NCBI GenBank assembly: GCA_964392655.1
Contig: CAYMQY010000001.1
Span: 1-54,550 of the forward strand
Direction: 5' to 3'
Length of the DNA: 54,550 nt
Origin: an uncultured Saprospiraceae bacterium
GTDB taxonomy: Bacteria > Bacteroidota > Bacteroidia > Chitinophagales > Saprospiraceae
Made by a program: the position numbers and the translations under genes
Notes under the pieces: generated by a model
What the model was told of the DNA's origin: nothing
Databases searched by the model: none
Seen by the model: only the letters and a program-made list of their open reading frames with translations
Part shown: positions 12,041 to 39,506 of the stretch, one piece after another
Numbering within the stretch: position 1 is the stretch's first letter
Layout of the letters: the number at the start of each line of letters is the position of its first letter

Positions 12041-12068
12041 AATGTTGAAATTGTATTTGTGACCTATT

Positions 12069-18796: not shown

Positions 18797-19492
18797 ATGT
18801 TCGATTTTGCGCCTAACGGCCATGCTGTGTCTTACCCGGAACTTGACGATGAACTTGACATGCACATGTCCGATTCCAAAGATGTTCCTATGCACTCCCG
18901 GGCATTCGATCTGACCGACTCGGAGAAGGTAGCGCTCATTTCGGATCGCTTTGCAGAGATCATGGAAATTCTGGGGCTTGACCTGACCGACGACAGCCTG
19001 CGGGGCACACCCAAGCGCGTGGCCAAGATGTATGTGCAAGAGATTTTTCGGGGTTTGAACCCGGCCAACAAACCAGAGGCCACCGTTTTTGAAAACAAAT
19101 ACCGGTATCGCCGCCTCGTCATTGAGCGAAACATACCCCTTCAAAGCACTTGCGAGCACCACTTTCAACCGATTCTTGGCGTGGCGCATGTTGCATACAT
19201 CCCGACCGACAAGGTGGTCGGGTTGTCCAAGTTAAACCGCATTGTGGAATATTACGCGCGTCGGCCACAGGTCCAGGAACGGCTTACAGTTCAAATTGCC
19301 GACGAACTGAAGCGCACGCTCCATACCGACGACGTGGCAGTATACATTGATGCCAGCCACCTTTGCGTGCAGGCCCGTGGAGTGGAGCACCACGGCGCCA
19401 GCACCATCACGGCCGAGTATTCGGGGCGCTTCCTTAATGAGGAAACCAAACGGGAGTTCCTGCTTGCCGTGCATTCTAAAATGCCGAATTGA
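18797..19492 (+). CDS. folE: GTP cyclohydrolase I
   Basis: Contains GTPKRVAKMY, the zinc motif STCEHHFQPI, GLSKLNRIVE and RPQVQERLT. The track start at 18755 is TTG; the first ATG is 18797. Confidence 0.9.
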   Translation: MFDFAPNGHAVSYPELDDELDMHMSDSKDVPMHSRAFDLTDSEKVALISDRFAEIMEILGLDLTDDSLRGTPKRVAKMYVQEIFRGLNPANKPEATVFENKYRYRRLVIERNIPLQSTCEHHFQPILGVAHVAYIPTDKVVGLSKLNRIVEYYARRPQVQERLTVQIADELKRTLHTDDVAVYIDASHLCVQARGVEHHGASTITAEYSGRFLNEETKREFLLAVHSKMPN

Positions 19493-19800
19493 GTATCGGG
19501 TACCCCCTGTTTATTTGTTGTCTTTTTTGAAGCAACACTTTGGTTTTCATTCCATTGAATACACATTAAATTTTTTTCAATTTGTCCTGTTGGGTTGCAT
19601 ACCGGCTTGGGACAGGTGATCTTGTTGCCGTTTTTCAAGCTACTGCCAGCGAACAATACGGAACCATGAAGCCGGTGTAACTCCAAGATCGCGTTGTCTC
19701 CGACCGCAGGCTACACCTGTGTACCTGCCGGTTGGGGGCGGCGGCGAAAAAGAACAAACAGCAGGAAACCCCTTCGCCGGCCCCACCGGTAATTTTGGCT

Positions 19801-19834
19801 GCCCGCCGAGGACTCGTCCCGGCGGGCTTTTTTT
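19801..19834 (+). terminator. Rho-independent terminator with no assigned gene
   Basis: The arm gcccgccg (19801-19808) pairs perfectly with cggcgggc (19820-19827) and is followed by T7 (19828-19834). It lies 309 nt downstream of the folE stop and 269 nt upstream of the next gene. Confidence 0.55.
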
Positions 19835-20102
19835 ATGGCTTGTAGTGCAATTACATGTCCTTTCCGAGGGTAAAATTTAAAAAAACAAGGCATTAAAAAA
19901 TTGATTTTCAGAAACTTGAGAATGTATTAAATTTCTTTCAATGTATCAAAAAACTTGTTTGGCTGAATCGGGAGCCTGCAAATTGGCTGAATAAATTGCA
20001 GCGCCGCAACCAACCAACCGCATGGGTACTTCCGGTATTTATCCCTGAAATGGCCGGGCAAAAGAAGCAGAGTAGGGGGTCACATTATTAAATTGTAACA
20101 AC

Positions 20103-20750
20103 ATGAAATCCGTACCAGTAACTCGAAATCTCCTTTGTATTCCGACAAGGATATCAGCCCTTGCCGTGCTCCTGTTGATGCTCGTTTACGCCTCCTCCTG
20201 CCAAAAGGAACCTGAGTGTGTTCTGCAGGAGCAACAAGTCGTTCAAAGCCAAACTTTGATGCGTTCATCTGTGGAGATGGATCAGCAGGTAGTCCAACAC
20301 ATCCAATGGGTGATCAACAATGTGATTCCACTCATCGCCGATGAAACGGTTGCCGCTGCAATACAGGCAGGAAACACAAGTTCGTCGTTGGTTACAGCCC
20401 GATTGCAGGAACTTGGTTTTTCAAATTTTGAGCAGTTTGCCACAGCATTTAACAGCAGCAGCAGTGCCATTCAAGCCGCCATCCAGGCAGGCAACCTTAC
20501 ACAGGCACAGTTAATTCAGATTGCGCAAGGGCACACTTTCGATTTTAGTCAGGTTGGAGGGGGGGCTGGTACCCTGCCTTGTACAGAACAATTTGCACTC
20601 GAATTGTCCTTGATGCCCATTTCAGTGGCTACAGCTGCCAGTGGAGGCCCACTAGCAGCTGTAATCGCCGGGGCTGTGCATGTTACCGTGGCGTATCTCA
20701 ATTTCAAAAATTGCCTGCGTACCACATATCCGGGTGCAGATATTCCTTGA
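20103..20750 (+). CDS. Hypothetical lipoprotein with a C-terminal two-cysteine module
   Basis: ATG at 20103 with lipobox LVYASSC. Contains internal AIQAGN repeats. The C-terminal module LPCTEQF...AYLNFKNCLRTTYPGA is shared with the 21663-22055 protein. Confidence 0.7.
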   Translation: MKSVPVTRNLLCIPTRISALAVLLLMLVYASSCQKEPECVLQEQQVVQSQTLMRSSVEMDQQVVQHIQWVINNVIPLIADETVAAAIQAGNTSSSLVTARLQELGFSNFEQFATAFNSSSSAIQAAIQAGNLTQAQLIQIAQGHTFDFSQVGGGAGTLPCTEQFALELSLMPISVATAASGGPLAAVIAGAVHVTVAYLNFKNCLRTTYPGADIP

Positions 20751-20787
20751 TCCGTTCACATTATTTTTTCAAGAAATACTATTTTAT

Positions 20788-21258
20788 ATGAAAAACTTCG
20801 CTCTTTTGGCACTTTTCGCACTATTGTCACTGGCTTCCTGCAATAAGGACACCAGGATGACATCTGCCGAATTGGAAACGCTGCAAGCCAAACTGCAATC
20901 CGATCCGGAAGTCACAAAACTCAATGAGGCATTTTCGAAACATTGCCGGTTACTGGCAACATTCTCTCCGGAGGACTTAAAAGCACTCCAGACTACGGTT
21001 CGGTCCTGCGGCTTTTACACGTCCACTGCCTCAATTCCGGAATTGGAAAAATGCCTGGCTGGCAATCAATTACGGGAGCCATACATCGAGGCTGAAAAGT
21101 ACCTCCGGGAATACGAAACCGGTCTGGAATCTGTTCAGAAGCGATACTCCGAGTTGAATCGGTTCAGTATCAAGGAGCGCCGGCTACTGATCACGCGGCC
21201 GGATCAGGATTTACCAGATCACATTCTATCCGATTTTCAATCACGTAAAAAGAGTTAG
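20788..21258 (+). CDS. Hypothetical lipoprotein, predicted mostly helical
   Basis: Trimmed to ATG 20788. MKNFALLALFALLSLASC is a lipobox signal peptide. No family recognised. Confidence 0.7.
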   Translation: MKNFALLALFALLSLASCNKDTRMTSAELETLQAKLQSDPEVTKLNEAFSKHCRLLATFSPEDLKALQTTVRSCGFYTSTASIPELEKCLAGNQLREPYIEAEKYLREYETGLESVQKRYSELNRFSIKERRLLITRPDQDLPDHILSDFQSRKKS

Positions 21259-23159: not shown

Positions 23160-24170
23160 TTAGTGCTTCACAAATTTCCCGGTGTAAAGCCTGTTTTTAC
23201 CGGTTACTCTTACCCAATAAATGCCCGGTGCAAGCCTGCTGACAGGCATACGCAGAATCTGGTCGGTCTTGATGGAATAATCTGTTTGCACCAGTTGTCC
23301 TTCAACCGAAAAAATCTCAACCTGAAGCACTTCTTCGTCGGGGAGTAGAATTGAAGCCTCCTCGGTCACCGGGTTTGGCCGAATAAGAACCGGTTGAATT
23401 GTAGAAATTTCATTTGTGCCGGTAAAAATCGGATCAAACCGAGTGCCCGTGTTCAATACTGCTCCCGTTTGAGCATGCTGCACAAACGCCAGCACATAAA
23501 GCGAATCGTAATTGGACGTCCAGCCATTCGGCTGAGTATGCGTGTAGGAAAAATTATACGTTGCCGAGGCTCCTTTTGCCGGAAGTGTGATGGGGTCCCC
23601 GTTTATGTCGGTCAACATAGCTCGAAAAACATCATAGTGTTTTGGCTCTCCATTTGGGGAAGCATAGTTTACGGTACTTTCGGCTACTGCGACAAACAAT
23701 TTATGCGGGCCGGCCGGCGGGTCGCCTACCATGCGTACTGTGACGGAAGTCGTTTGGTTGGGCGCCGTCCCGCCCTCCTGAACTTCGATAGCAATCGGAC
23801 TTTCCTGACCAAATGCCGCCTGAAGTGTAGCAGCCGGCAAGAGTGGCGTGCTCACCGGAACCAGACTGCCGTTCAGGGCTACACGAGGGGTACCATTTAC
23901 TCCGTAAGCCGAAGTACGTGTATTGTTTTGGGTTGGGTTGGCCAGGTAAATCTTGCAATCGCTGTACGGTACGGACGGGTGGATCGAAAGGTGCCGCACA
24001 TCATTGGGGTATTGATCAATCAAGGCATAAAAAGCCGGATTCTTGCTTGCACAAATGCCACAACGCGAATTGGTAAAATGTTCCAGCAAGACATAACGCT
24101 TGGGCAATGACTGGGCGCCGAGTGTAAAGCAGGTTAAGAGTAATGTAAAAAAACCGACGTGTTTCTTCAT
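23160..24170 (-). CDS. T9SS-sorted secreted protein with an N-terminal thioredoxin-like/Omp28-related region
   Basis: Signal peptide MKKHVGFFTLLLTCFTLGAQ. LLEHFTNSRCGICA is a CxxC context. The C-terminal sorting domain reads IRPNPVTEEASILL...GIYWVRVTGKNRLYTGKFVKH. Confidence 0.8.
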   Translation of the reverse strand: MKKHVGFFTLLLTCFTLGAQSLPKRYVLLEHFTNSRCGICASKNPAFYALIDQYPNDVRHLSIHPSVPYSDCKIYLANPTQNNTRTSAYGVNGTPRVALNGSLVPVSTPLLPAATLQAAFGQESPIAIEVQEGGTAPNQTTSVTVRMVGDPPAGPHKLFVAVAESTVNYASPNGEPKHYDVFRAMLTDINGDPITLPAKGASATYNFSYTHTQPNGWTSNYDSLYVLAFVQHAQTGAVLNTGTRFDPIFTGTNEISTIQPVLIRPNPVTEEASILLPDEEVLQVEIFSVEGQLVQTDYSIKTDQILRMPVSRLAPGIYWVRVTGKNRLYTGKFVKH

Positions 24171-27559: not shown

Positions 27560-28274
27560 TGTCGTTATTGGATTTGTCGTAATGTGAAACAAAAAACAAA
27601 TTTGGAACAAGGCCAAAGGTAAGAAGTTCAGTGCCTTCCACTAAAAAGATCAGCGCCCGATGTTCTCCTTTGAACACCGGGCGCATGATAAATGAATAGT
27701 GTTTGTTTGCCTGCATCGCCGGATTACGTGTGTGCTGCTCGAAAGGCGATGCTGCCGAAGGGTGTGTGTTGCGGCAATTGCTGCCGCGCGGAATGATACC
27801 GCGGAGGGAGTTTCAAGTGGAGGTTGGGGTTGGGGAGAAACGGATTTTGAGAAAAAATGTGGGGGGTAAAGGAGGGCAATCAAATGTTGTAATGCGGTTT
27901 TTGTGATGCCCGGTACAAAAGTACCGTATTCGGGCACGCTGCCAATCCGTGCAAACACCCGTTTTTTTATCAGGGAAAACCCTGAAGAAACTACTGCCCA
28001 CTAGTGATGGTAGTAGCTGCGCCTGTTCAGTCCTGCCAGTATTCCCTCTTCCCGATCTATGAAAATGGCGTTCTGATCGGATGTACAAAAAATGATTTTT
28101 TTAAAATTTTATGTTTAAAAAATTAAAATATATCAAAATTTAAAACCATTAATTTTTAATATTGCCGAATACTAAAAAACAAGACCGATAAATAATTCAG
28201 TTTTAGAATCGCCCTGACTTGTACTTATATTCGACCCTGATCCCTGTTTGCCCCGCGTGTTCATTAAAAAATCA

Positions 28275-29708
28275 ATGGCCATGAAAGCGTCCCCCCGTCC
28301 AAATGTAGGCCCATCTACCGATCCCCCTATTCCTGTCCAATTCCAGAATTTTTACCACAGCTCGGAAGCACTTCGTTTGGAAGGCTCTCTGGGTGGAGCA
28401 GGTATGCCTGTGCTGAAAGATGCCGGTCAAACTACCGGCACATTGCTCCTACTGCTTGGGGAAACTACGGCCTGGCAGGAAGCATGCGATTTTTTAGAAA
28501 TCTGCAAACAGCAGCACCGGCATGCCGTTTGTCTCGCGCTATTCAACCGTCCGCTGGAACACCACAAGGTGTGGGAGTTACTCCACTCGGGTGCCGACGA
28601 GGTGTTGCAATGGAACCAGTTGCCCGAGCCGGAACGCATCCTCCGGGCAAGGCTTGAGCGCTGGACAGCCGTAGACAACATTCTTGGATCGCCTGAAGTG
28701 CAGGAAAAACTCGTCGGCAGCAGTCCGTGTTGGCACAAACTCCTGCGGCAGGTGATAGAAATGGCGATGTTCAGCAGCGCCCCGGTGCTCCTGCTCGGCG
28801 AGAGCGGTACCGGCAAGGAACTGCTTGCACGTCTCATCCACCGGCTTGATGCTCGGGCAAACAAGCGCGATCTGGTGTTGTTGGACTGCACGACGGTGTC
28901 GCCCGAACTGTCGGGCAGCGAGTTTTTCGGCCACGAAAAAGGTGCGTTCACCAATGCCGTGTCCAACCGCGACGGGGCCTTTGCTCTGGCTGACGGCGGC
29001 ACCCTGTTTCTGGACGAGATCGGTGAACTGCCACCGGCCATGCAGGCCGAACTGCTACGCGCCGTGCAGGAAAAAATGTACAAACGCGTCGGGAGCAACT
29101 TTTGGCGGCACACCAACTTCCGGTTAGTGTCGGCCACCAACCGCGACCTGAGCGCCGAGGTACGGCACGGTCGCTTCCGCGAAGACCTGTTTTTCCGCCT
29201 TTCCGCCTGCGTATGCCACGTGCCGCCCCTGCGCAAGCGCATGGATGATGTGCCCGCTCTGGCCATCTGTTTTTTGAAACAAGCCCTGCGCACCGACACC
29301 CCGCCCCCATTCGACGAGCACCTGCTCACCTACTTGTGTACCCGCGAGTATCAGGGCAACGTGCGCGAATTGCAGCAACTCGTGTCGCGCATTGCTTACC
29401 GCCATACCGGCAACGGGCCGGTCACCGTGGGCGACCTGCCCGAATACGACCGCCCCGATATGGCCCGTCTGCAAAACCCCTGGAGCCTCTCCGATTTTGA
29501 GACGGCTCTGCGCATTGCCATTGCCAACGGAATCGGCCTGAAGGAAATCAAGCGCTGCGTCAGCAATAAAACCATGGAACTTGCGATTTCAGCATCCAAC
29601 GGGAATTTGCAGGATGCTGCCTACCAACTGCAAGTGAGCGATAGAACGATTCAACTGTATTTGGCAAGTGTACGGGATGGGGAAGTGGTGCCGGAAGGGA
29701 TGGATTAA
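28275..29708 (+). CDS. Sigma-54-dependent transcriptional activator (bacterial enhancer-binding protein) with an atypical N-terminal domain and a Fis-type helix-turn-helix
   Basis: AAA+ core with Walker A LLGESGTGKE, Walker B LFLDEIGEL and the sigma-54 contact loop GAFTNA (a variant of GAFTGA). C-terminal helix-turn-helix NGNLQDAAYQLQVSDRTIQLYL. The track start at 28248 is TTG; the first ATG is 28275. Confidence 0.85.
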   Translation: MAMKASPRPNVGPSTDPPIPVQFQNFYHSSEALRLEGSLGGAGMPVLKDAGQTTGTLLLLLGETTAWQEACDFLEICKQQHRHAVCLALFNRPLEHHKVWELLHSGADEVLQWNQLPEPERILRARLERWTAVDNILGSPEVQEKLVGSSPCWHKLLRQVIEMAMFSSAPVLLLGESGTGKELLARLIHRLDARANKRDLVLLDCTTVSPELSGSEFFGHEKGAFTNAVSNRDGAFALADGGTLFLDEIGELPPAMQAELLRAVQEKMYKRVGSNFWRHTNFRLVSATNRDLSAEVRHGRFREDLFFRLSACVCHVPPLRKRMDDVPALAICFLKQALRTDTPPPFDEHLLTYLCTREYQGNVRELQQLVSRIAYRHTGNGPVTVGDLPEYDRPDMARLQNPWSLSDFETALRIAIANGIGLKEIKRCVSNKTMELAISASNGNLQDAAYQLQVSDRTIQLYLASVRDGEVVPEGMD

Positions 29709-29709: not shown

Positions 29710-30774
29710 TTATGGAAGAATTATTCCCCGACGCCATGTATCGGGAATTGGGGACCCTGACCCCTCCTTGTAGCTGCCGCCATCAGTCAGGCCAAGATTT
29801 TGTTTTGCCCATTCGCCGATCTGAAGCCAAGTGGTTGGCCCGGGGTCATTATCGCGGCTGGAACTGGCTTGCCGATGAGCAAAGACATAGCGGATTGTCG
29901 GTATCCTTGCTTTTAGCGCTGTCAGCAAACGGCGACCGGCTGCGATTTGTGCCGAAGTGGGTTCGCCACAAACACGACTGCCACTACCATGCCCGCGATT
30001 GACGTATTGACCGGAACTCCACCAGCACCTGCCCCTGTCATCTGCAAATGTGCCGGCAAACTCAATGCCTACGCTCCGGCTGTTGAAGCTTTGGGCGTGG
30101 TAAACAATTCTTGATTCCGGGTACAATTGAATGATACGCCCATTGGGCAAAACAACAAAGTGCGCCCCAACCCACAGGTAGTGCCGGGGGTCATTGTTTT
30201 GACTTCCGGCGGTTTGGTGCAACACCACGGCATTGACGCTGGAAAGTGCACGCGTGCCCCCCAAACAACTGGTTGCGTTTCGGGCAGATGCACACTGTCC
30301 AGGTGTGGCTTGGCCGGTAAAGTCCTCAATCGCACCAATTGCCACTGGAATCAAGGCCTCTAAGGCTCGTTTCAATGCATTCCAGGTAGCCGGCCCCAAT
30401 TTTCCGTCTGCCGTCAGCCCATTTGCTGCCTGAAATTTAGCGATGAGTTCTGCAAAAGCAGCTTCGTTCGGAGATTGATTTAAACGAAATACCTTCGACA
30501 CGATGTCATTGTAATGCCGGAGCCAGCCGACCGAAGCCGCGTTTTTTTTGTTGTAGGCCACAGCACTCTGAAGTGCATTACTGCCGAGCTCATCCAGCCA
30601 CTCATCCTCGTTCGTGTGCAGACTTTCTCGAGTCGGCGCCCGACGACAAGTCGGGCAATTGCAGTTTGCAGCATGGTATGTTTTGCCTTTTTGGCAATTC
30701 GAGCAGCCACAGCCACAAGAATGCCCGGATGGAGAGGCTTCCATTTCGAGTAATTCATCAAGGTAAGTACGCAT
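29710..30774 (-). CDS. N-acetylmuramoyl-L-alanine amidase (Amidase_2, AmpD/PGRP type) with a Cys-rich N-terminal extension and a PG_binding_1 repeat; no signal peptide
   Basis: PG_binding_1-like segment AKFQAANGLTADGKLGPATWNALKRAL. Amidase_2 blocks are AVVLHQTAG, AHFVVLPNGRIIQLY, NSRSVGIEFAG and FAHRQASSSRDND (His-x9-Asp spacing as in AmpD). The track start at 30810 is TTG. I prefer ATG 30774, which gives MRTYLDELLEME, the same first seven residues as the protease gene. Confidence 0.8.
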   Translation of the reverse strand: MRTYLDELLEMEASPSGHSCGCGCSNCQKGKTYHAANCNCPTCRRAPTRESLHTNEDEWLDELGSNALQSAVAYNKKNAASVGWLRHYNDIVSKVFRLNQSPNEAAFAELIAKFQAANGLTADGKLGPATWNALKRALEALIPVAIGAIEDFTGQATPGQCASARNATSCLGGTRALSSVNAVVLHQTAGSQNNDPRHYLWVGAHFVVLPNGRIIQLYPESRIVYHAQSFNSRSVGIEFAGTFADDRGRCWWSSGQYVNRGHGSGSRVCGEPTSAQIAAGRRLLTALKARIPTIRYVFAHRQASSSRDNDPGPTTWLQIGEWAKQNLGLTDGGSYKEGSGSPIPDTWRRGIILP

Positions 30775-30806
30775 TGTTTTTTCTGTTTGACCATCTGAGA
30801 ACCGAG

Positions 30807-31340
30807 TCAACCAACTCGCATAATTTCATCTAAAACCGTTTCATATTGTTGATAGGGTCCTCGCTGGTAGCCTCCCTGGTTTGTCCCTTTTGTGTACTCC
30901 CTCCGGGGTGGTTCTGCCCGGAGCCAAATCTCGACACGGCGATTCTTTTCAGGTCTGTCGGCGGAAACAAGCGTTAACTTACCCTCCGTATTCAACGTCA
31001 CCGGAACGGGAAATTTCAATTGAGCCCTGTACTTGTCATGCAAGGCGTAAAGTAGATGTGAAGCGGCTGAACTGGCTCTTTTCAAGCCGAGGTAATGGTT
31101 GAAGGTGAATGATCCACTTGTGTCGGCAAAACCGACAATCACTATTTCCAACACCGGTTGGGATGTTTGATGTGAATCGGCAATCATTTTTGCAAGATTG
31201 TTCAGGGCTTTAATGTGGTCGGGAAGAAGATCCGATTTGTTTAGTCGAAAACCATCAATCGTGAACGATTGAGGAACCCCGGTTTGGACGAATGCTCGCG
31301 GGGATGTGGTGGAGTCGGGAGACATGTTGTAGCCGTTCAT
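30807..31340 (-). CDS. OmpA-like peptidoglycan-binding domain protein; no signal peptide
   Basis: The pattern IVGFADTSGSFTFNHYLGLKRASSAASHL...NRRVEIWL fits an OmpA_C-like domain. I prefer ATG 31340 (MNGYNMSPD); the track start is 31412. The C-terminus ends ...YETVLDEIMRVG. Confidence 0.7.
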   Translation of the reverse strand: MNGYNMSPDSTTSPRAFVQTGVPQSFTIDGFRLNKSDLLPDHIKALNNLAKMIADSHQTSQPVLEIVIVGFADTSGSFTFNHYLGLKRASSAASHLLYALHDKYRAQLKFPVPVTLNTEGKLTLVSADRPEKNRRVEIWLRAEPPRREYTKGTNQGGYQRGPYQQYETVLDEIMRVG

Positions 31341-31399
31341 AATCAGGTTGTTTTTACAAATTAGAGAATGAGTTTTTTTTGAAATTGGCAAGCGACAGG

Positions 31400-32272
31400 T
31401 TATTTGAGCCAAGCCTGGACTTGGGTGTACACCTCGTTATTAAATAAAATGCCTCGGTTGTGGGAGTAAATTTCCTGTCCACCACTACATCCTGCTCCGG
31501 GACTTTTTGTGCAACCATCAAGATCTCCGCAGGCGCCGGTGTGAATACCTGCCAAAAAACGCTGGCGAGGAATACAGTCGTTTTCTCCCCAGACCATGTA
31601 CCATATTGGTGAACCACTGTGACCCGGGCAGGTGTCACCTTTGTAGGTAAATCTGTTTTTTTGAACAACCCCACCGATCCTGGGCTCCATATTGTCCATA
31701 GGCTCATCATCCCACCATTGGGTGAACGGCGCCTTGTCGGAAGGGTAGCCGCAGACTGTGACAACTTTGCCTTTCAAAAAATCTTTGTCCATGGGTATTT
31801 GGTGCGTGCCTTGGCCACAGCTCCCCCACCAACCCAATCGGGTATTTTGGATAGCCGTAAACTTCTTTTTTCCTACCTCTTCATTCAGAATGATCACCGC
31901 GTAATCGTGCCGGCGGTCAAAAGCGTTACGCCACTCGTCCCGTAGTCGAAAGACCGTTGTTGTGTATTCACCAAAAGGCTTCGATGCACCATGTCGTCCT
32001 GGAGATACCGTTATTCGAATAGGCAACAGTCCTTTTAATGGCCCGGAGTTTGGGACAAGGACATGCCCCGCCGTAAGCACATGGCGCGGACTTATAAGCA
32101 ATCCTGTTGCGGGCAATTGATCTGTATGTTCTACATTATTCGCATCTCGATATGTACAAATGATTGAACAAATCCACCGGAACGGCGGCCGAGTGTTGTT
32201 GTCAATTATACTACGAGTATCTGCACCCACAATTTCAAGTTCATTCCAGATTTCATCCAGATACGTTCGCAT
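31400..32272 (-). CDS. Trypsin-fold (clan PA, S1B/V8-like) serine protease; no signal peptide
   Basis: Candidate catalytic triad: His in LTAGHVL, Asp in RRHDYAVIIL, Ser in GDTCPGHSGSPIW (GxSGSP as in V8-type enzymes). Starts MRTYLDEIWNELE at ATG 32272. Confidence 0.8.
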   Translation of the reverse strand: MRTYLDEIWNELEIVGADTRSIIDNNTRPPFRWICSIICTYRDANNVEHTDQLPATGLLISPRHVLTAGHVLVPNSGPLKGLLPIRITVSPGRHGASKPFGEYTTTVFRLRDEWRNAFDRRHDYAVIILNEEVGKKKFTAIQNTRLGWWGSCGQGTHQIPMDKDFLKGKVVTVCGYPSDKAPFTQWWDDEPMDNMEPRIGGVVQKNRFTYKGDTCPGHSGSPIWYMVWGENDCIPRQRFLAGIHTGACGDLDGCTKSPGAGCSGGQEIYSHNRGILFNNEVYTQVQAWLK

Positions 32273-32326: not shown

Positions 32327-33280
32327 TCAACCCACCACTCCCTCCCGCAGCCAAGGGTCGCCGGCAACCGGCAAACGGGCATCGGCAGTGGAAAACGGCG
32401 GCTCGGTTCGAAGGGGTACGGTTCGGGTTCTGGAGGTTAAGCGCAGAAAATTCCCGCCCAGCACAAGGGCCTCCTGTTCGGGCGGCAGGCGCAGGGCAAA
32501 TACTTTTTCCAGTTCCACGCCGGGGTGCAGCCACGGTCCGTCGGATCCGAACAGCACCTTGTGGGCGCCGGCCCGCCGCACGGCCATCTCCAGCAGATCG
32601 AAGCGTCGCACGCCGGAGGTGTCGGTGAACACATTGGCGTGGCGCTCGAGGTACGGGATAAAATTCAGTTGCGCTTTCCAGTCGTCAGCAAAACTTCCGA
32701 GGTGCGGAATGATGAAGTTCACGTCGGGATACTCAGTCGCGAACAGCTCGATACTTGTCACATTTCCCATCACGTCGTACAACACCGGCAGCCGGAATGC
32801 CCGGGCTGATTCGCATACCTCACGGGTGATGTGCGCATCGTGCCGGTGTGCCTTGATGCCCCGAAAACCGTACTCTTCCACCGCTTCGCGCACCAGATCG
32901 AACACACGCCCCGCATCGCGCCCGGCATGCACGAAGGCAAAGCCGGAAAAGCGCTCGGGATGCTGCCGTACCAATCGGGCTACCATCCGGTTGGCCGCCC
33001 GGTAGTCAGAGTGAAACGCTGCGAACAGGTTGATTCTCTCGATGCCCGACTCGTCGGCCCAGCGCAGAAACTTAGTCAGGTCGGCCCGCGTATCCCAGGG
33101 ACCGTTGAGTCCGTCACCGGGGCCGTAGTGGCAGTGCGCGTCTATGACCGGAGTTTGCCGGCGTCGTCGCTCGCGCCACTTCGGGTATCGGTTGAAACCA
33201 GCACAGGCAGGACACATACAGGCATGCGAGTAGCCGGCACCTGCGATGCAACCGCGCAGGGTGTTAGTATCAAATTTCAT
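32327..33280 (-). CDS. Metal-dependent TIM-barrel amidohydrolase (Amidohydro_2-like) with a Cys-rich N-terminal extension
   Basis: HxH metal motif VIDAHCH, plus IPHLGSF and the late Asp in LFGSDGPWLHP. The N-terminal extension carries ...SHACMCPACAGF. Confidence 0.8.
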   Translation of the reverse strand: MKFDTNTLRGCIAGAGYSHACMCPACAGFNRYPKWRERRRRQTPVIDAHCHYGPGDGLNGPWDTRADLTKFLRWADESGIERINLFAAFHSDYRAANRMVARLVRQHPERFSGFAFVHAGRDAGRVFDLVREAVEEYGFRGIKAHRHDAHITREVCESARAFRLPVLYDVMGNVTSIELFATEYPDVNFIIPHLGSFADDWKAQLNFIPYLERHANVFTDTSGVRRFDLLEMAVRRAGAHKVLFGSDGPWLHPGVELEKVFALRLPPEQEALVLGGNFLRLTSRTRTVPLRTEPPFSTADARLPVAGDPWLREGVVG

Positions 33281-33343: not shown

Positions 33344-35515
33344 TCAGGCCACTTTGCCGCGCTGCTCCAGGAGCCGGCGTTGCAGGTGGATCGAAGGTTG
33401 AACAGCATCTATCCGCCCGCCGGTGATATCGGCAGTGAGATCCACCCCTGTGACGGCGCGGTAGGCGTGCATGTACGCTTGTATCTGCGGGCGCCAGAAG
33501 TTGGCCCAGTTGGCCGCCGAAAAGCGATTGGTCACGCTTGTCCAGTCTCCAAACCGGATAGAGAGCAGCAGTTGTTCGCCAAATACTCCGAGGTCACGAA
33601 AATGGGACACATTGGTCTTGGTCCAACCCATCAGGTTGTTGAGCGCCGCGACACGATCCATCCACGGCTCGGGGTAGGCCACCATGATTCGAGTGGGCAG
33701 AAATTCCCGAAACTCAGGCCGTGCCAACAACCACTGCTGCATCAGCATTTCCGACCGCGCCACTGAAGGCAGATCGCCATACTGGTTGTGCGCGCCTTCG
33801 GACAATACGAGGTGAACTTCCTTGAGTGCGTTCAGGATCGGGAAGGCGTCGGGTTGCACTGTCATGTCATCCGCCTGTTTGTAGTATCTGGTGGTCAGGT
33901 TTAGTAGCGTATGGAACGCTTCAATGAACTTGGAGCGGCTGTCGGCAAAACGCATATTCTGTACAGCAGTACCCTGGAGCGTGATACCGTAGTGGTGGTC
34001 GTACTCGTATGCGCGACGGCGCACGGTAAGGCGGTGTTGTTCATCCTGCAAGTACCCCCACATGAGGTTGCTGAGCGGCCGCAGCGGATCAATTTCGAGG
34101 TGCGCAAGAGGATCAACCTGACCGGGACCTTTGATGTTTTGAAATCGGCGTCCAATCGCATTGAGTCCTTGCACCATCATGCTTTCTTCCATCCAGTACG
34201 ACCAGATGAGCTCGAGGAAACAGGGTGTGGCGAGTTTACTCTGAATAATACCGAAGCAGTTTGTGTCGGTTGAGGTGTTGCCCGTACTGGAGTACACCTG
34301 CAAGGCTTCTTCAAGGGCCAGGGTCTTGAGATCGGAATCTTTCAACTTGCGCCGAATAACCGCCAGGTACGGGATTGTTGACACAGCGCCGTTTACAGAT
34401 TCCTTGTACTCGTTCCACCACTCGTCCAGTTTTTTGACATCGGGATTCCCGTTCACCAAAGGCACATTGCTGTTCAAATTTTCCAGCGTGCTTTCATCAA
34501 AAACGCCGTCGGTCATACAATTGACCATAACAAACGATTCGGTGGCTACTTTAAGGCTGTGGTAACCATCTACGCCCATGAACGGTAAGGCCCGCGTTTG
34601 GCTCAGGCTTTTTACTTTGCCTTGCATCTTGGAGTTTTTGGTCAATGATGTTTGCGTGGCGCCGCAAAAAACCTCATCCATGAAATGGTGGAAATTCGTG
34701 AACGACAAGTCTTGCGTGCTTTTCTGGATGATCATCCACAAAGCGAGGTCGTAGGTGATCTGACCGGCAGAGGGCTGCAAGCGGGCGTTGATCGTATTGG
34801 ACAACTTGCTGGCGATGGTTGCGCTCAGATCGGCAAATGAATCAGCGATCTCATCGGCCACCTTACCCAGCGGATTGGTGTTGGAGTTCGCGCCGTCCGG
34901 CAAAAGCAACAGTTCGAAATTGGTTTTCAACTCTGCATTGAATGCCTCCAACAGTGGATCATCAACCGAAATTGCCGTTGACAATAAACCCAGCGTGACA
35001 GAGGGTGTACCAAAAACCAGTTGCGGATACAGAATGCCCGTCGTTTGCGTCTGAGCAGGAATATTGCCCAAAAATTTGAGGTGGACCAGCCAAACGGCAG
35101 TAAGCGCATCTGTGCTCGAAGCGGCTTGTAGCGCTACCGTCGTATGGCGCAAGTTTGCCAATGCCGGCGAGGACAAACCCGCACCGGTGTTCATGTCCAT
35201 GTATCCAATTTGAGGATTGCTCGTCGCTTGGTTGTCGTTAAACACCACGTCTTGGAGAAAGCGTCCGAAATCATCAGCATTGGTCAGGTCATAAACTTCT
35301 CCGGTAAACGTGGCTTGTGTCGGAATGGTCGTGCTAGTCGGGTCAATGGCAATCTCGAACGACATCTCAGTGGTGAACGGAACACTGGCCCCTACCGTGG
35401 TTTGGTTGACATCAACGTTCAGGGACGTAAGTTCCAGGATGACATCAACCGCCTCGACATTCTGTGCAGCCGTCCGTTGGTATCGGAGCCTCAGTTTATC
35501 AAAATTTGCACTCAT
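33344..35515 (-). CDS. Large (723 aa) hypothetical protein; no recognisable domain or signal peptide
   Basis: Clean ATG at 35515, 13 nt after the upstream stop. Amino-acid composition is balanced, unlike the shadow ORFs on other frames. Distinctive blocks include FLELIWSYWMEESMMVQGLNAIGRRFQN. Confidence 0.75.
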   Translation of the reverse strand: MSANFDKLRLRYQRTAAQNVEAVDVILELTSLNVDVNQTTVGASVPFTTEMSFEIAIDPTSTTIPTQATFTGEVYDLTNADDFGRFLQDVVFNDNQATSNPQIGYMDMNTGAGLSSPALANLRHTTVALQAASSTDALTAVWLVHLKFLGNIPAQTQTTGILYPQLVFGTPSVTLGLLSTAISVDDPLLEAFNAELKTNFELLLLPDGANSNTNPLGKVADEIADSFADLSATIASKLSNTINARLQPSAGQITYDLALWMIIQKSTQDLSFTNFHHFMDEVFCGATQTSLTKNSKMQGKVKSLSQTRALPFMGVDGYHSLKVATESFVMVNCMTDGVFDESTLENLNSNVPLVNGNPDVKKLDEWWNEYKESVNGAVSTIPYLAVIRRKLKDSDLKTLALEEALQVYSSTGNTSTDTNCFGIIQSKLATPCFLELIWSYWMEESMMVQGLNAIGRRFQNIKGPGQVDPLAHLEIDPLRPLSNLMWGYLQDEQHRLTVRRRAYEYDHHYGITLQGTAVQNMRFADSRSKFIEAFHTLLNLTTRYYKQADDMTVQPDAFPILNALKEVHLVLSEGAHNQYGDLPSVARSEMLMQQWLLARPEFREFLPTRIMVAYPEPWMDRVAALNNLMGWTKTNVSHFRDLGVFGEQLLLSIRFGDWTSVTNRFSAANWANFWRPQIQAYMHAYRAVTGVDLTADITGGRIDAVQPSIHLQRRLLEQRGKVA

Positions 35516-35528: not shown

Positions 35529-36860
35529 TTAAAGTGAACGTTGTTGTTGCATAACCGCCCACTGGAACAGCATTCCTGTGAGGGTTTTGTTTTCGGCAAA
35601 TGGGGTAATGGCGTGGTCGGCCCGGGCCTGCCCAACTGCGGCGAACACCATGCCCGGACGGGCCGAATACATGGCCCGGGGATGCTGTTGCCACAGTCGG
35701 TACATCTGCCGGAGCCGCTCCGGTTGGCGTTCGTTCAGCGGAAACACGTCGCGGAGCGCCGCTCCCCGCAGTGCCTGCGGCCGGTGCAGCAGGATGGTCT
35801 GTACAAAATCCGGCAGCGCCTCGTGCAAGGCCCGAATGATCGTTTGCTGTGCCGCAGGCTGTTCGCCCGGCGGGTAGAAATTTTCCCAGATGCGCTCCAG
35901 GCGGTCCCACTGCGGGTCGGGGTACAGCACCCGCCCGAAAGCAATGCTTATCTTGACCCGAATCCAGGGGAAGGGGTGCGGATCGCCGTCGGGAAGCCGG
36001 AACACGAAATACTCCGGCAGGCTCACTACACCGATCAGTCCGGTGGTAGCGCTCACGCCCAGGGTGGCTACTGACCAGACGTCGGACAAAATTTCCGAAA
36101 TCCACAGGCGGTAGAGTTTCCAGGCCGTGCTGCGTTGTGGTTCCTGTTCGGCCTTTTGTTCCAGCATCGCCGTGACGGTGTTAACCAAATCGAGCAGCGC
36201 TGCGCCCTGATGCCCCACCTCGTGTACCAGCGACGAACCGATGCCGCTTCCCACCATTCGTTCCCGAGGCACCTTGATGATAGCCACCGGGTTGGAATGA
36301 CCACCCGGCAAACGGGTTCGGGCGCGCCGGATGGCGGCCCCGTGGCCGCGGTCGAGGTAGCAGATCAGCGGCGGCGGATGGTAGTAGTCGCCGTCGAGGC
36401 GCAAGGTGTCGCGGGCAAGTATATCGAGTCCTGCCAACCAGATGCCTGTTTCGTGTTCGCTGCGCTGGTTGAGCACATCGGCAAAAATGTCGAAGGTGTC
36501 GAGCAGGGCATTGAACCGCAACTTAAGCAAGGAAAAGCCCGTTTGCAGACGTTTGGGCGATTCTTCCGGGTTGTCCTGCAGACCGGTGATAAACCGTCGT
36601 ACCTGGCGTCCCAGTTGTTTGCGCCCGCTGCGGATCAGGTCGTGGATGTGACGCAAAGCCCGGTTTTCCAGCCCTGCTGCCACCACCATCGGCATGGTTG
36701 CCTCGAAGGGCTTGACCTGTACCAACCGTGCCAGCAGCGCCTGCGCTTCGCCGATGAGGTGTTGCCGATGTATATCGGAAACCTGACTGTCGGCGCCCGT
36801 TGCGGGTGTTGCCTCGGTCACACGCCCGTGAGGATGAGTTGATTGCCTTGCCGGTACCAT
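35529..36860 (-). CDS. Hypothetical protein with a single HExxH motif (possible zinc metallopeptidase)
   Basis: Contains SSLVHEVGHQGAALLD, with a downstream acidic segment WISEILSDVW about 35 aa later. ATG 36860 overlaps the upstream gene by 43 nt. The alternative in-frame GTG at 36821 overlaps the upstream TGA as GTGA. Confidence 0.7.
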   Translation of the reverse strand: MVPARQSTHPHGRVTEATPATGADSQVSDIHRQHLIGEAQALLARLVQVKPFEATMPMVVAAGLENRALRHIHDLIRSGRKQLGRQVRRFITGLQDNPEESPKRLQTGFSLLKLRFNALLDTFDIFADVLNQRSEHETGIWLAGLDILARDTLRLDGDYYHPPPLICYLDRGHGAAIRRARTRLPGGHSNPVAIIKVPRERMVGSGIGSSLVHEVGHQGAALLDLVNTVTAMLEQKAEQEPQRSTAWKLYRLWISEILSDVWSVATLGVSATTGLIGVVSLPEYFVFRLPDGDPHPFPWIRVKISIAFGRVLYPDPQWDRLERIWENFYPPGEQPAAQQTIIRALHEALPDFVQTILLHRPQALRGAALRDVFPLNERQPERLRQMYRLWQQHPRAMYSARPGMVFAAVGQARADHAITPFAENKTLTGMLFQWAVMQQQRSL

Positions 36861-37468
36861 GTTCCGCTGCTTTGTGCTTGTTGTTGTTCGGGCATCGGAG
36901 GCGTCATCGGCTCATCGGTTTCCTGCATCATGGTGTTGGCGCCGCGAGCAGCCCAAAGCAGACCGGGAAAATTCCGGCGAGCAGCCTGACTCAGGATTCC
37001 ATGCACCATTCGGCGGTTGACCGGCTGACCCGATTGTGCCTGTTGGGCAATATGTCCGGCGGTTTGCCGGGCGGTACGGATGAATTTCCGGGCAAGTGGC
37101 AATTCATTTTCAAACTCGGCCTCGTATTCATTGAGGTAACGGTCGGCAAGCCATGAGCCGGCTTTGTTGCCCCAGTCGGAGCCGGTTTGTCCGCCGATGT
37201 ACCCGCCGATTTTGGCACCGATGGAAGGCAGGGCTTGCCGGCCAACCGATTTGAGGCCCGACACCACCTGCCCTTTGATGGCCTGGCCCATGGGCGAGTT
37301 GTACAGTTTTTTGGCGCCGCCCCAGGCGCGTTTGAGCAGTTTGCCGAGGAAGTAGTCAAGTTCGGCCTCGCTCTGCACATTGAGCAGTTCGTACGCCAGT
37401 TCGTTTTCTTCCATTTCCAGGGTGACTTCGGAGTTGAGTTCGTATGCTTCAAAATTCTCGTAATTCAT
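36818..37468 (-). CDS. Glycine-zipper protein B (216 aa), paralog of the upstream gene
   Basis: Acidic N-terminus, then the ELAYELLNVQSEAELDYFLGKLLKRA helix. (GxxxG)5 zipper G-AKI-G-GYI-G-GQT-G-SDW-G-NKA-G, a basic middle region, and C-terminal SSGTWYRQGNQLILTGV. Confidence 0.7.
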   Translation of the reverse strand: MNYENFEAYELNSEVTLEMEENELAYELLNVQSEAELDYFLGKLLKRAWGGAKKLYNSPMGQAIKGQVVSGLKSVGRQALPSIGAKIGGYIGGQTGSDWGNKAGSWLADRYLNEYEAEFENELPLARKFIRTARQTAGHIAQQAQSGQPVNRRMVHGILSQAARRNFPGLLWAARGANTMMQETDEPMTPPMPEQQQAQSSGTWYRQGNQLILTGV

Positions 37469-37489
37469 GATGTGGAGATGTTTAGATGG

Positions 37490-38239
37490 TTAGAGTGTGA
37501 CGATGATTTGGTCGCCCTGGCGCGTCCAGGTGCCGGAGTTGGGGAAATCTGGTGCTGTGGTTCCGCCGCCACCGCCGTTGGATGTCGGGGCATTGAACGA
37601 AATATTACTGCCGCCAACGGGGGTGAGCAAACCAGGAGCATGTTTGGAGGCCGCCATTTTGAGGGCGTTGCGGGCAATAGCCCAAGGGGATACGCCACGT
37701 CTTCCGCGTGCACGGCGCATACCGGATGCCGTACGGCGGGCAGCGGAGTTTGACAGGCGTACGATCCGGCGGGCGACTTCAAATTCGCGGTCTTCATTGC
37801 TCATGCCCTCCAGGTTTACTTCAAACAGAGTGGAGGCCCAACTACCGAGTTTGCCGCCAATCATCCCACCGACCGGACCACCGAAAAACGACCCGGCGGC
37901 TTTGCCTACAACCGGCAAGGCTGTTTTGGCTACTTTTTTCAAACCGCCGATGAGCGCCTGACCCGCACTGGATTTGGCGAAGTTGGATACCCCGCGGGCG
38001 GCTCGGCGAACCAATTTGCCGAGAAACTGGTCGAGTTCTTCCTCGCTGTTCACGGCCAACAATTCGGCAGCCAGTTCGTATTCGGCTTCCTGACTCAGGC
38101 CGTATTCGCCTTCCCACTCTTCCTCGCCCTCCCATTCGCCTTCGTAGTCGCCTTCGTACTCCCCTTCATAATTGTACTCCTGGTCAAATTCGTTGTTTTC
38201 GAATCCGCCTTCGTTGAGGAAACCATATTCATGGCCCAT
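37490..38239 (-). CDS. Glycine-zipper protein A (249 aa) with an E/Y/G/W-rich acidic leader
   Basis: N-terminal EYEGDYEGEWEGEEEWEGEY repeats, then EYELAAELLAVNSEEELDQFLGKLVRRA. (GxxxG)4 zipper G-SFF-G-GPV-G-GMI-G-GKL-G, an Arg-rich segment, and C-terminal NSGTWTRQGDQIIVTL. Confidence 0.7.
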   Translation of the reverse strand: MGHEYGFLNEGGFENNEFDQEYNYEGEYEGDYEGEWEGEEEWEGEYGLSQEAEYELAAELLAVNSEEELDQFLGKLVRRAARGVSNFAKSSAGQALIGGLKKVAKTALPVVGKAAGSFFGGPVGGMIGGKLGSWASTLFEVNLEGMSNEDREFEVARRIVRLSNSAARRTASGMRRARGRRGVSPWAIARNALKMAASKHAPGLLTPVGGSNISFNAPTSNGGGGGTTAPDFPNSGTWTRQGDQIIVTL

Positions 38240-38519
38240 TTCCTAGTTCATGATGCGATCCATGTTGTGCATAGCAGATAAATTTTGTTTGAATGAATAA
38301 ATGGAGAAAGCATGCTATGCCAATATCCTTTCAAGCAGGATGCCGAAAAAGATAAACCATTGAAAATCAGTTGTAATTGAAAAAAACAGCGAATTTTTTT
38401 TCGGAAAGACCGAAATGGGCAGGGTGGGCGCGAAATTTTTTTCAGGGGTTTTTCCGGGCGAAAAAAATGCTGTAAAAATCATATTTACAACGACTTACGC
38501 CTCAAACACAACACTTGGC

Positions 38520-39506
38520 CTAATGCCCCTCATGCTCAAACACCGCCTCTACTAATTTCAACGCTGAACTGCGAAATTTCCCCGCAATACCTGTCGGAAG
38601 TTCTTCCGACATAAGTAACGGAGCCTCTGCAAACGTGCGGAGCCATTGTACCTCCCGGTACGAAGCCCCGGTAGCAGGGTCTGACTTGGGATCGGATTGT
38701 ATGATGCCCAAACCATACAATTGCATTTTTCCGCTGATGGCGAGTACGATTTCGCCCGTTTGCGCCCGACGGGCCAATGTGCGTACACCTTTCGCCCGAG
38801 CAGCAGCGGCCTCGGCAGCGAGCAGGGGCCACATTTCGTCGAACAGGTCGGTGTCCCACAATCGGTAGGCAGCCCAGTATGGCCGGAGTATTTCCTGCGG
38901 ATTCAACGGCAGGTGATGCATCCGAAAATATGGCTCCCATGCCTCGTTTTTTTCCTGCAAACGTATCCACCAAACGCCTGCGCCGCTGCTGATGCGCCGC
39001 CGCAAATCAGTCCGTTGAATCTGTGTGTTTTGAAAAAGGGGGAATGCGGCAAAAGACTTGACCTCGGCAGGGCGTATTTTCCAAATGTGTACCGACAAAC
39101 CTTTCAGGCGACTGAATTCCTGCTGAAATGAGCCAAGAAGCACAAGGTCATCGGTAGCGATGAGATTTTCGGCATTGCTGCTGTATGTCCAGTTAAACGA
39201 GCCGGTGAGCAGCAGGCGCTCGTCGAGCAGGGCAAACTTGTGGTGCATGAGCGCCGTGTCGCGGTATGCGTACAGGCTTCCGCCGAGTTTTATAAATTTT
39301 TGAAAATCCAGTCCATTCGGATGAATGTTCTGGCTGTCGTACTCCAGCAGGAGTTCGACCGGGATACCGGCACGCAGTTTTTTCAAAAGCGTCTCGAAAA
39401 TATCGCGGTGGGAAAACCAGCAAACGGCAATGCGGATGCTGGTTCGGGCATCGGCAAGATACCGGCAAAGCACGGCGGACAGGTTTTGGAAATATACTTC
39501 AGGCAT
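38520..39506 (-). CDS. Phospholipase D/nuclease superfamily protein (single HKD motif) fused to an unassigned ~180-aa C-terminal domain
   Basis: Canonical HxK(x4)D(x6)GSxN motif: HHKFALLDERLLLTGSFN. ATG at 39506. No signal peptide. Confidence 0.8.
   Translation of the reverse strand: MPEVYFQNLSAVLCRYLADARTSIRIAVCWFSHRDIFETLLKKLRAGIPVELLLEYDSQNIHPNGLDFQKFIKLGGSLYAYRDTALMHHKFALLDERLLLTGSFNWTYSSNAENLIATDDLVLLGSFQQEFSRLKGLSVHIWKIRPAEVKSFAAFPLFQNTQIQRTDLRRRISSGAGVWWIRLQEKNEAWEPYFRMHHLPLNPQEILRPYWAAYRLWDTDLFDEMWPLLAAEAAAARAKGVRTLARRAQTGEIVLAISGKMQLYGLGIIQSDPKSDPATGASYREVQWLRTFAEAPLLMSEELPTGIAGKFRSSALKLVEAVFEHEGH

Follow-up and report, generated by a model that had tools for sequence, protein, structure and literature searches.

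Tandem glycine-zipper proteins at the head of a sigma-54-associated operon with leader-bearing downstream enzymes in an uncultured Saprospiraceae bacterium

The DNA analyzed here, a stretch of 54,550 nucleotides from contig CAYMQY010000001.1 of an uncultured Saprospiraceae bacterium (referred to as the window), carries on its minus strand two adjacent genes for glycine-zipper proteins, A and B. In the direction of transcription, these are followed by genes for a predicted metallopeptidase (H), a large protein with an all-helical domain (T), an amidohydrolase (AH), a trypsin-like protease, an OmpA-like protein and a protein with Amidase_2 and PG_binding_1 domains, and a gene for a sigma-54 enhancer-binding protein (EBP) is convergent with the end of the operon. 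Profile searches of all open reading frames (ORFs) in 85 loci revealed a fixed order that starts with one to three copies of A and continues with H and then T. This arrangement is referred to below as the A-H-T operon, and its features in the window are collected in Table 1.

Table 1. Features of the A-H-T operon and its surroundings in the window
Feature	Position	Strand	Remarks
Protein A ("type 1" paralog)	37490-38239	-	249 aa as called
Protein B ("type 2" paralog)	36818-37468	-	216 aa; starts with MNYENFE, without the MHxxDR N-terminus
Glycine zipper of A	37844-37906	-	residues 112-132, GKAAGSFFGGPVGGMIGGKLG
Glycine zipper of B	37157-37219	-	residues 84-104, GAKIGGYIGGQTGSDWGNKAG
C-terminal motif of A	37493-37537	-	SGTWTRQGDQIIVTL, predicted beta hairpin
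Remnant of the family N-terminus	38243-38272	-	MHNMDRIMN (ATG 38270-38272), then in-frame TAG 38243-38245 (codon 10)
H, predicted gluzincin metallopeptidase	35529-36860	-	443 aa; HEVGH 213-217, SEILSD 255-260
T	33344-35515	-	723 aa; variable N-terminal beta sandwich and all-helical domain of ~480 aa
AH, Amidohydro_2 enzyme	32327-33280	-	Pfam E 5e-18; N-terminal CMCPAC and WRERRRRQ extension
Trypsin-like protease	31400-32272	-	variable effector; leader MRTYLDEIWNE, no signal peptide
OmpA-like peptidoglycan-binding protein	30807-31412	-	
Endolysin-like protein, PG_binding_1 and Amidase_2	29710-30810	-	Pfam E 8e-20; PHROG endolysin E 1e-21
Sigma-54 EBP, convergent with the operon end	28248-29708	+	Sigma54_activat E 6.5e-56
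Sigma-54-type promoter candidate	38331-38345	-	CGGCATcctgcTTGA; -24 GG kept, -12 GA in place of GC
Palindromic element	38310-38323	-	TTGGCATAGCATGC; between promoter and A start; near-identical in the window and L005 to L007, one base off in L005
PLD/NucT-like protein	38520-39506	-	directly 5' of the operon promoter; PLDc_2 E 1e-19, weak DrmC-like matches
PorU-like C25 peptidase	12838-16707	+	
Por_Secre_tail protein	23160-24170	-	

The glycine-zipper proteins A and B

Both ORFs lie on the minus strand where a first-pass annotation of this DNA had placed them, and every peptide string that it quoted was found. Their paralogy, which it had proposed, is borne out by 36% identity across approximately 207 residues (BLASTP, E 3e-29). 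Each protein contains a zipper of six glycines in strict i+4 register, from G112 to G132 in A and from G84 to G104 in B, and thus at least three conserved GxxxG units, as is characteristic of glycine-zipper families. In an alignment of 25 sequences of the family, G116, G124 and G128 never vary, and conservation is at least 90% for G112 and G132. These conserved columns indicate that the zipper register is under selection and is not an accident of composition. The two proteins also share the C-terminal SGTWxRQGxQxI motif. In that of A, the same alignment shows invariant residues at G236 and W238 and a conservation of at least 90% at R240 and G242. Neither protein has a signal peptide or a transmembrane (TM) helix, in agreement with the first-pass annotation: the highest Kyte-Doolittle mean over 19 residues is 1.01 in A and 0.41 in B, with no segment of that length above 1.6. 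Comparison with the glycine-zipper families of Pfam (C19orf12-like, Gly-zipper_Omp/YMGG and Rick_17kDa_Anti) gave no match above the curated thresholds for either protein. The best match, to C19orf12, reached 14.6 bits against a cut-off of 30 and covered the zipper region alone; it was given by 3 of the 25 family members.

A search with A retrieved 1,195 proteins, all of them unnamed or annotated as hypothetical, and a profile search of 1.84 billion cluster representatives extended the family to at least 2,557 clusters at 50% identity; for 1,349 of these, the E value is 1e-30 or lower. Since the motifs are conserved across these clusters, the features of A and B do not arise by chance. Many clusters hold fusions of two to four A copies, with lengths of up to 1,036 aa. 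A second unannotated domain, made of Gly/Ala-rich repeats of the type PGGxxAQxAFDxAxxLAxGxN, is fused to or adjoins A-like domains in three loci (L054, 6263-9310; L053, 1794-3176; L061, 6785-7975); the L054 protein, of 1,015 aa, combines it with three A-like units.

The architecture of the family opens with MHxDRT and a low-complexity acidic and aromatic ExE region of variable length. This is followed by EMELAxELLxVxxExELDQFLGKL, by a basic stretch and by the zipper region, with ALPxxG and GGPxGGxIGxKLGS. Beyond the zipper lie FExELEGxSxEDxEFEVARRxVR and AAxxHAPGLL, and a variable Gly-rich linker then leads to the C-terminal SG(T/R)WxRxGNxIxLxG. The EYEGDYEGEWEG repeat, which the first-pass annotation had singled out as an oddity of A, turns out to be the rule, as acidic/aromatic ExE repeats of variable length occur across the family. 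Its description of an acidic N-terminus followed by a basic body applies throughout: the median net charge is -19 ahead of the ELAxELL helix and +16 behind it, and all 94 of the members analyzed have a positive body. Where a genome has two copies, a type 1 copy, with MHxDRT, comes first, followed by a type 2 copy that resembles B and starts with MNYE, MYNNE or MQDYQE. Type 2 copies behind type 1 copies were seen in loci of Saprospiraceae, Chitinophagaceae and Hymenobacter.

The N-terminus of the family, MH(N/D)xDR(I/T)xxE, lies eleven codons 5' of the start called for A, which corresponds to Met12 of the relatives. In the window, a remnant of it is separated from the called start by an in-frame TAG (Table 1), at a position where the closest relatives (e.g., L005 and L006) have GAG, encoding glutamate. 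One relative, P0001, is 98% identical to A and 260 aa long. The TAG may reflect either a genuine nonsense mutation, with translation restarting at the next ATG, or a sequencing error.

A model of A, built with AlphaFold2 from an alignment of 122 sequences, has a mean predicted local distance difference test (pLDDT) score of 73 and a predicted template modeling (pTM) score of 0.64. It presents seven to eight helices across residues 50 to 205, and most of the helical core (residues 50 to 200) reaches a pLDDT of approximately 90 or more. The exception is the zipper segment (approximately residues 110 to 130), which is modeled as part of a helix-GGP-helix hairpin (residues 110 to 139) and is the least confident part, with a pLDDT of 46 to 52. 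Residues 1 to 44 are predicted to be disordered (pLDDT of approximately 40), and the C-terminal motif (SGTW...IIVTL) is predicted to form a beta hairpin with strands at residues 237 to 241 and 244 to 248. A Foldseek search with this model retrieved nothing above noise, the best E values being 0.43 in the PDB and 0.13 in BFVD, with a target-normalized template modeling score of 0.32. Entries for Bcl-2, Mcl-1, a Cry toxin, E1B-19K and a "pore-forming tail tip" were all at noise level and were not used. A phage tape measure protein was likewise set aside as an identity for A: the PHROG match (E 5e-4) covers the Gly-rich segment alone, that to PDB entry 6v8i has an E value of 0.3, and no tail genes lie nearby. 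By this model, A is predicted to be a folded protein with an unrecognized fold and not a short peptide precursor.

The conserved operon and its regulation

H is present in all 85 loci, A in 82 and T in 78, and the gaps coincide with contig ends. H directly follows the A gene or genes in each of the 82 loci with A; the other 3 of the 85 are cut by contig ends. In the best 80 loci, H is always at least 49% identical to the window protein. These loci come from Bacteroidota, Acidobacteriota, Nitrospirota, Verrucomicrobiota, Planctomycetota (including anammox lineages), Gemmatimonadota, Chloroflexota, Methylomirabilota, Deinococcota, Myxococcota, Calditrichota and Gammaproteobacteria. A scan of one genome per species detected relatives of H in 505 or more species, spread over at least 12 phyla.

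H has at least 5,079 homologs, and the ORF called for it shares 43 nucleotides with the end of B. H213, E214, H217, E256 and D260 are invariant in 25 H sequences from diverse phyla. The combination of HExxH with ExxxD is the signature of the gluzincin metallopeptidases, and H is accordingly predicted from its sequence to be a gluzincin zinc peptidase, with no relative in Pfam, NCBIfam, PADLOC or the PDB. The tie between an HExxH protein and A and B that the first-pass annotation had raised is strong, given the position of H directly behind A and the invariant HEVGH and SEILSD motifs. That annotation missed the third invariant partner, T, together with the sigma-54 control and the set of polymorphic, leader-bearing effectors.

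T ranges from 650 to 780 aa across the loci. Its all-helical domain contains more than 100 invariant columns, and the N-terminal beta sandwich varies with lineage and is CarboxypepD_reg-like in some members. In an AlphaFold2 model from 30 sequences, the N-terminal domain has a pLDDT of approximately 80 and the conserved C-terminal domain stays below 50. T has no match in Pfam or the PDB. Its Foldseek matches were generic, Ig-like, limited to the N-terminal sandwich and uninformative, and a PDB match to calmodulin (E 0.01) was dismissed as chance. Lipoxygenase, terpene synthase, LanC-like and peroxidase identities, considered for the helical domain on the basis of motifs, did not fit, and none is claimed.

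Clustering of the remaining ORFs revealed two recurrent partners, an AONS/CqsA-like pyridoxal phosphate (PLP) enzyme in 53 of the 85 loci and the Amidohydro_2 enzyme in 52, and an M20 peptidase as an occasional further one. The gene for the PLP enzyme is absent from the window. Where it lies directly 3' of T (e.g., L029, 13123-14235; L085, 12152-13267), its product keeps the SxxK lysine motif and has the size of a CqsA-type autoinducer synthase. The extension of AH in the window, CMCPAC...WRERRRRQ, is a module also present in PD-(D/E)xK-type effectors of related loci, and most AH orthologs are devoid of it.

Tandem precursor-like genes next to a peptidase and several enzymes, with a conserved C-terminal motif, could suggest that A and B are precursors of a bacteriocin or of a product like the ribosomally synthesized and post-translationally modified peptides (RiPPs), matured by H, T, the AONS-like enzyme, the M20 peptidase and the amidohydrolase. 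The first-pass annotation had pointed in this direction, and we consider it highly improbable. The proteins have 200 to 320 aa, are conserved over their full length and have a confidently folded, globular helical core with no hypervariable core peptide. Furthermore, the body and C-terminus are conserved and the N-terminal region is variable and of low complexity, the reverse of a conserved leader with a variable core. The operon contains no known RiPP enzyme, transporter or immunity family, and in the window no double-glycine leader, export gene, ABC or type I secretion transporter or immunity-like membrane protein was found. The precursor explanation would also leave the leader-bearing lytic enzymes and nucleases of the operon unaccounted for. 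A peptide-processing system described earlier, in which a zincin is associated with FxSxx-COOH peptides (Kaur et al. 2020), has a different architecture.

In some contigs of Proteobacteria type, integrases or transposases flank the cassette. Together with the high identity of H across phyla, this suggests that the A-H-T cassette is a mobile unit. Phage-type integrases and a transposase surround the whole cassette in L088 (4901-6214 and 18147-19934) and L090 (2225-3622).

No match to A, H or T exists in Pfam 2025, NCBIfam June 2026, PADLOC 2023 or the PDB, and comparison of A, B, H and T with Pfam, NCBIfam, PADLOC and PHROG, both as single sequences and as whole alignments, gave only composition-driven matches below threshold. 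What the core proteins share with known families is confined to the generic zipper, the HExxH/ExxxD signature, and the EBP, with the promoter found in related loci. Full-text literature searches with motif strings and keywords found no description of the operon or of A, H and T in the searchable corpus. Because no curated library, solved structure or searchable paper describes these three proteins, the system is rated as categorically new. The theme of effector polymorphism is familiar, and the system may prove to be an accessory of contractile injection systems (CIS).

The EBP gene adjoins the cluster in 54 of the 85 loci and is usually convergent at the operon end. An element near the sigma-54 consensus TGGCAC-N5-TTGC (at least 9 of 11 positions, with GG and GC fixed) precedes the first A gene in 40 of 82 loci, in most cases by 60 to 100 nucleotides, compared with 4.5% of random 550-nucleotide segments; at 10 or more matching positions, the numbers are 25 of 82 loci and a background of 0.9%. 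Sigma-54 control of the A-H-T family is thus well supported by its sequences. For the window copy, it is probable: the aligned element reads CGGCAT-N5-TTGA, with A in place of the -12 C, a deviation that it shares with the nearest relative, L005. The counterparts are TGGCATctcgcTTGA in L005 and TGGTACccagaTTGCA in L006 and L007, the latter reading TGGTAC-N5-TTGCA. The palindromic element between this promoter candidate and A (Table 1) might be an operator or a structure in the 5' untranslated region. In L085, an upstream ORF of 14 codons (7780-7824) lies between a sigma-54-like promoter and A; its product, MRDLDRVQIENRGP, ends at a stop codon and mimics the N-terminus of the A family. The CqsA size of the AONS-like enzyme, combined with a LuxO-like sigma-54 activator with a degenerate receiver domain, hints at quorum-type control.

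Downstream genes and their shared leaders

The genes downstream of T vary among loci. Most encode endolysin-like effectors, and the peptidoglycan-directed class comprises PG_binding_1 proteins with Amidase_2, VanY, M23 or YkuD domains, as well as OmpA-like proteins. Proteases are represented by trypsin-like and M35 enzymes, and the lipid-directed class by phospholipase D (PLD). The class directed at nucleic acids contains PD-(D/E)xK-like and GIY-YIG-like nucleases, Ntox5 and deaminase-like proteins with an HPE...PCxxC motif; the Ntox5 domain of the L001 effector reaches 33 bits, above the gathering score of 25. Signal peptides and clear TM segments are absent from all operon proteins, and H has one borderline hydrophobic stretch.

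These enzymes carry common N-terminal leaders. The leader in Bacteroidota has the form M-(R/K)-(T/N)-L-(L/I)-D-E-I-L..E and precedes one or two CxCxxC knuckles, behind which W(K/R)ERRxxR is often present; in other phyla, it is F-E-x-E-P-F-E followed by acidic EFE repeats. A regular expression for the leader matched 33 of 1,360 downstream ORFs on the same strand, 2 of 1,877 upstream ORFs and 5 of 4,347 ORFs on the opposite strand. For CxCxxC, the corresponding counts were 43, 9 and 15. The leader motifs are thus specific to the genes downstream of T. In the window, the endolysin-like protein has the leader MRTYLDELLEME, starting from its Met13, and CxCxxC knuckles, with no signal peptide or TM segment. 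Two further points tie A to this leader logic. Its N-terminus, MHNMDRIMNE, appears to resemble the Bacteroidota leader, and A-like bodies also occur in effector position behind an effector-type CxCxxC leader (L004, 14013-14720; also L065).

The trypsin-like protein, which the first-pass annotation described as V8-like and suggested as a maturation enzyme, is encoded in approximately 19 of the 85 loci and has an effector-type leader of its own. Since it is a non-conserved partner with the leader of the other variable enzymes, it looks by its sequence like a cargo or effector and not like a maturase.

The presence of similar N-terminal modules on a core protein and on effectors bears on an explanation in which A and B would be the non-toxic core of an intracellular effector-activation system, acting as adaptors, scaffolds, chaperones or regulators. 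They would bind the leaders or, in the manner of PspA, the EBP, or would nucleate an effector-recruiting assembly through the shared N-terminal modules, and the glycine zipper would serve tight helix packing with no membrane insertion. We regard this as clearly unlikely. It is consistent with the compact, soluble and helical structure predicted for A, with the low hydrophobicity of both proteins and with the fused multicopy forms, which suggest oligomeric scaffolds. Moreover, sigma-54 EBPs are often controlled by partner proteins, and modules common to core and effectors recall the logic of effector-associated domains in conflict systems (PMC7159879). However, A shows no similarity to PspA, effector-associated domains or any known adaptor, its relatives appear in effector position with effector-type leaders, and the conserved division into an anionic and a cationic part, with disorder at the N-terminus, is a design seen more typically in masked membrane-active proteins.

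Outside the operon, the window consists of ordinary chromosome, with genes for RRF, SOD, FeoB, PHO4 and a PorU-like peptidase. The latter and a Por_Secre_tail protein (Table 1) show the presence of a type IX secretion system (T9SS) in this bacterium; a T9SS C-terminal domain is found in none of the operon proteins. The PLD/NucT-like gene upstream of the promoter was considered as an operon member and set aside, being common only to the closest relative, L005; it probably lies outside the system. A T9SS-type adhesin, a short-chain dehydrogenase/reductase and a major facilitator superfamily transporter that recur in the flanks were judged to be unrelated neighbors.

Possible function and relation to known systems

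The explanation tentatively favored here is that A and B invariably head an operon that is self-contained, horizontally mobile and under sigma-54 control and that deploys a polymorphic set of effectors devoid of signal peptides, with A as its membrane-active, acid-masked component. A-type proteins would be made as acid-masked pro-forms. The predicted gluzincin H, co-translated with them, would remove or recognize the acidic disordered N-terminus of A and probably the effector leaders too, and the cationic helical body thus freed would bind and permeabilize a membrane through its glycine-zipper hairpin. This could have two outcomes. The co-expressed wall hydrolases could reach the peptidoglycan of the producer itself, in a holin-like release or suicide step, or A could help the effectors across the membrane of a target. 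B is a diverged second copy and may pair with A, as the existence of fused multicopy versions suggests. A is the only candidate for membrane activity because no protein of the operon has a clear TM segment or signal peptide, and the cassettes would work on their own, since integrases flank them. The pro-toxin idea of the first-pass annotation is retained in part: the acid-masked cationic zipper design extends across the family and the link to the HExxH protein is strong, whereas the trypsin-like protein drops out as a maturase.

Several points weigh against this explanation. The zippers are weakly hydrophobic (Kyte-Doolittle maxima of 1.01 in A and 0.41 in B) and are modeled with low confidence, and the fold of A resembles neither holins, colicins and Bcl-2 nor, above noise, any other entry of the PDB or BFVD. 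Some loci contain no peptidoglycan hydrolase, such as L001 and L003, which have Ntox5 or deaminase-like genes instead, so that a holin-for-endolysin role cannot be universal. The only argument for the proposed cleavage of A by H is that their genes are neighbors, and the mechanism assigns no role to T, the AONS-like enzyme and the amidohydrolase, despite their conservation. Furthermore, the local copy may be impaired, given the stop-truncated N-terminus of A and the non-canonical -12 element.

A broader formulation, possible if doubtful, is that A-H-T constitutes a hitherto unrecognized, self-contained machine for effector deployment, spread horizontally over at least 12 phyla. It would represent a new way of releasing or delivering proteins, with no relation to the numbered secretion systems. 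The sigma-54 activator would turn the operon on, possibly upon a signal from the CqsA/AONS-like enzyme, and two novel proteins, the gluzincin H and the helical putative enzyme T of 480 aa in its conserved part, would recognize and process the N-terminal leaders. A would be the universal membrane-breaching substrate, enabling the signal-less lytic enzymes and nucleases to leave the cytoplasm or enter a target.

In the main competing proposal, A-H-T is a cargo or loading module for a CIS encoded elsewhere in the genome, either an extracellular CIS (eCIS) or a type VI secretion system (T6SS) of the T6SS-iv type. The leaders and disordered acidic N-termini would then be packaging signals, and the downstream enzymes and A would be injected cargo. 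A may act as a tube-lumen, plug or tape-measure-like component or a membrane-breaching cargo, with H and T processing or loading the cargo. In L085, a CIS operon (1-7412, with genes for Pvc16_N, sheath, two gp19 proteins, CIS_tube and spike) divergently adjoins A-H-T (7970-21102). This CIS operon is complete-looking, and the effectors of its A-H-T neighbor include PG_binding_1 proteins, a PLD and a trypsin-like protein. An effector set of peptidoglycan hydrolases, PLD, nucleases and deaminase-like proteins with no signal peptides is typical of injected effectors; Ntox5, found in the L001 effector, was defined as a toxin of eCIS of the Photorhabdus virulence cassette (PVC) type (PMC3482391), and disordered N-terminal signal domains are known on eCIS cargo (PMC12210884). 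Such a disordered region is predicted in A (residues 1 to 44), and shared leaders are enriched in the downstream genes. The three A-H-T isolates that could be checked, Hymenobacter chitinivorans, Janthinobacterium HH01 and CG23_2, are all eCIS carriers in a published survey, in which the rate for the genus Janthinobacterium is 6 of 39 (PMC8213781). Weak sequence and structure matches of A to tape-measure and pore-forming tail-tip proteins point the same way, but they are at noise level (E 5e-4 and composition-biased; E 0.3). Moreover, a phmmer search with one query set and limited sensitivity found no CIS gene within 10 kb on either side in approximately 85 other loci, including the window, and the eCIS locus lies approximately 700 kb away in the two isolates with comparable coordinates. 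No H relative occurs among 2.9 million viral contigs of IMG/VR, A, H and T are unreported in any characterized CIS, and the cassettes look self-contained and mobile. On balance, we consider the CIS module rather unlikely, and the comparisons below return to the membrane-active, acid-masked A of an autonomous operon.

Glycine zippers with a function at membranes have precedents. In the T6SS effector Tde1 of Agrobacterium, the zipper mediates membrane permeabilization and translocation (PMC10240207), and in Caulobacter, zippers mediate killing by the paired Cdz proteins CdzC and CdzD (PMC5380434). Like A and B, these proteins have (GxxxG)n tracts with no classical TM helices and are associated with antibacterial effectors, and the related Cdz zipper proteins are also encoded side by side. 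There is no similarity in sequence or fold, however. The Cdz proteins are small, exported by a type I system and accompanied by an immunity gene, and the zipper of Tde1 is located within a nuclease loaded on the T6SS. In contrast, A and B are proteins of 216 to 260 aa that are tied to H and T and in which an acidic disordered N-terminus precedes a globular helical core and a beta hairpin at the C-terminus.

Holin/endolysin cassettes and type 10 secretion resemble A-H-T in combining signal-less endolysins with a small candidate for membrane activity under tight transcriptional control, and a signal-less endolysin is indeed co-encoded in the window (29710-30810). Holins, though, have at least one TM helix and A and B have none, and A-H-T contains nothing phage-like and adds nucleases, proteases and three conserved proteins of uncharacterized or enzymatic nature. 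Bacterial gasdermins are pore formers that are activated by proteases encoded next to them and are held inactive by an inhibitory extension. The parallel is a protein with proposed membrane activity and an inhibitory extension beside a dedicated protease. The differences are that A is predicted to be all-helical whereas the gasdermin fold is beta-rich, and that the inhibitory part of A would be N-terminal and acidic, with putative cleavage.

The cargo of eCIS/PVC and the polymorphic toxins (PMC3482391, PMC8213781) likewise place variable toxin domains behind a shared N-terminal module, and the diverse domains behind M+TLLDEIL/CxCxxC or FEAEPFE leaders in A-H-T follow this pattern. These systems also share with A-H-T the lack of signal peptides, the presence of Ntox5 and an associated metallopeptidase. 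They differ in that H is not the DUF4157 PVC metallopeptidase, that CIS genes do not adjoin A-H-T in 87 of 88 loci and that the core of A, H and T is foreign to them. Also, no immunity genes were recognized for A-H-T, and the window shows no obvious one; no systematic search for them was made.

A, H and T represent three families with no annotation or solved relative, the first of them with no recognizable fold, and are spread over hundreds of species. They accompany an arsenal of signal-less cell-wall hydrolases, proteases and nucleases with common leaders in a sigma-54-regulated operon. Should the operon prove to be a lysis or delivery module acting autonomously, or a cargo module of a CIS, it would explain how signal-less enzymes reach their substrates and would define a new class of membrane-active glycine-zipper proteins, and the leader peptides and their dedicated protease would be usable as tools. 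For the Saprospiraceae, the operon provides candidates for the unidentified peptidoglycan-degrading effectors suspected in the predatory members of this family (bioRxiv 10.1101/2024.01.29.577165).

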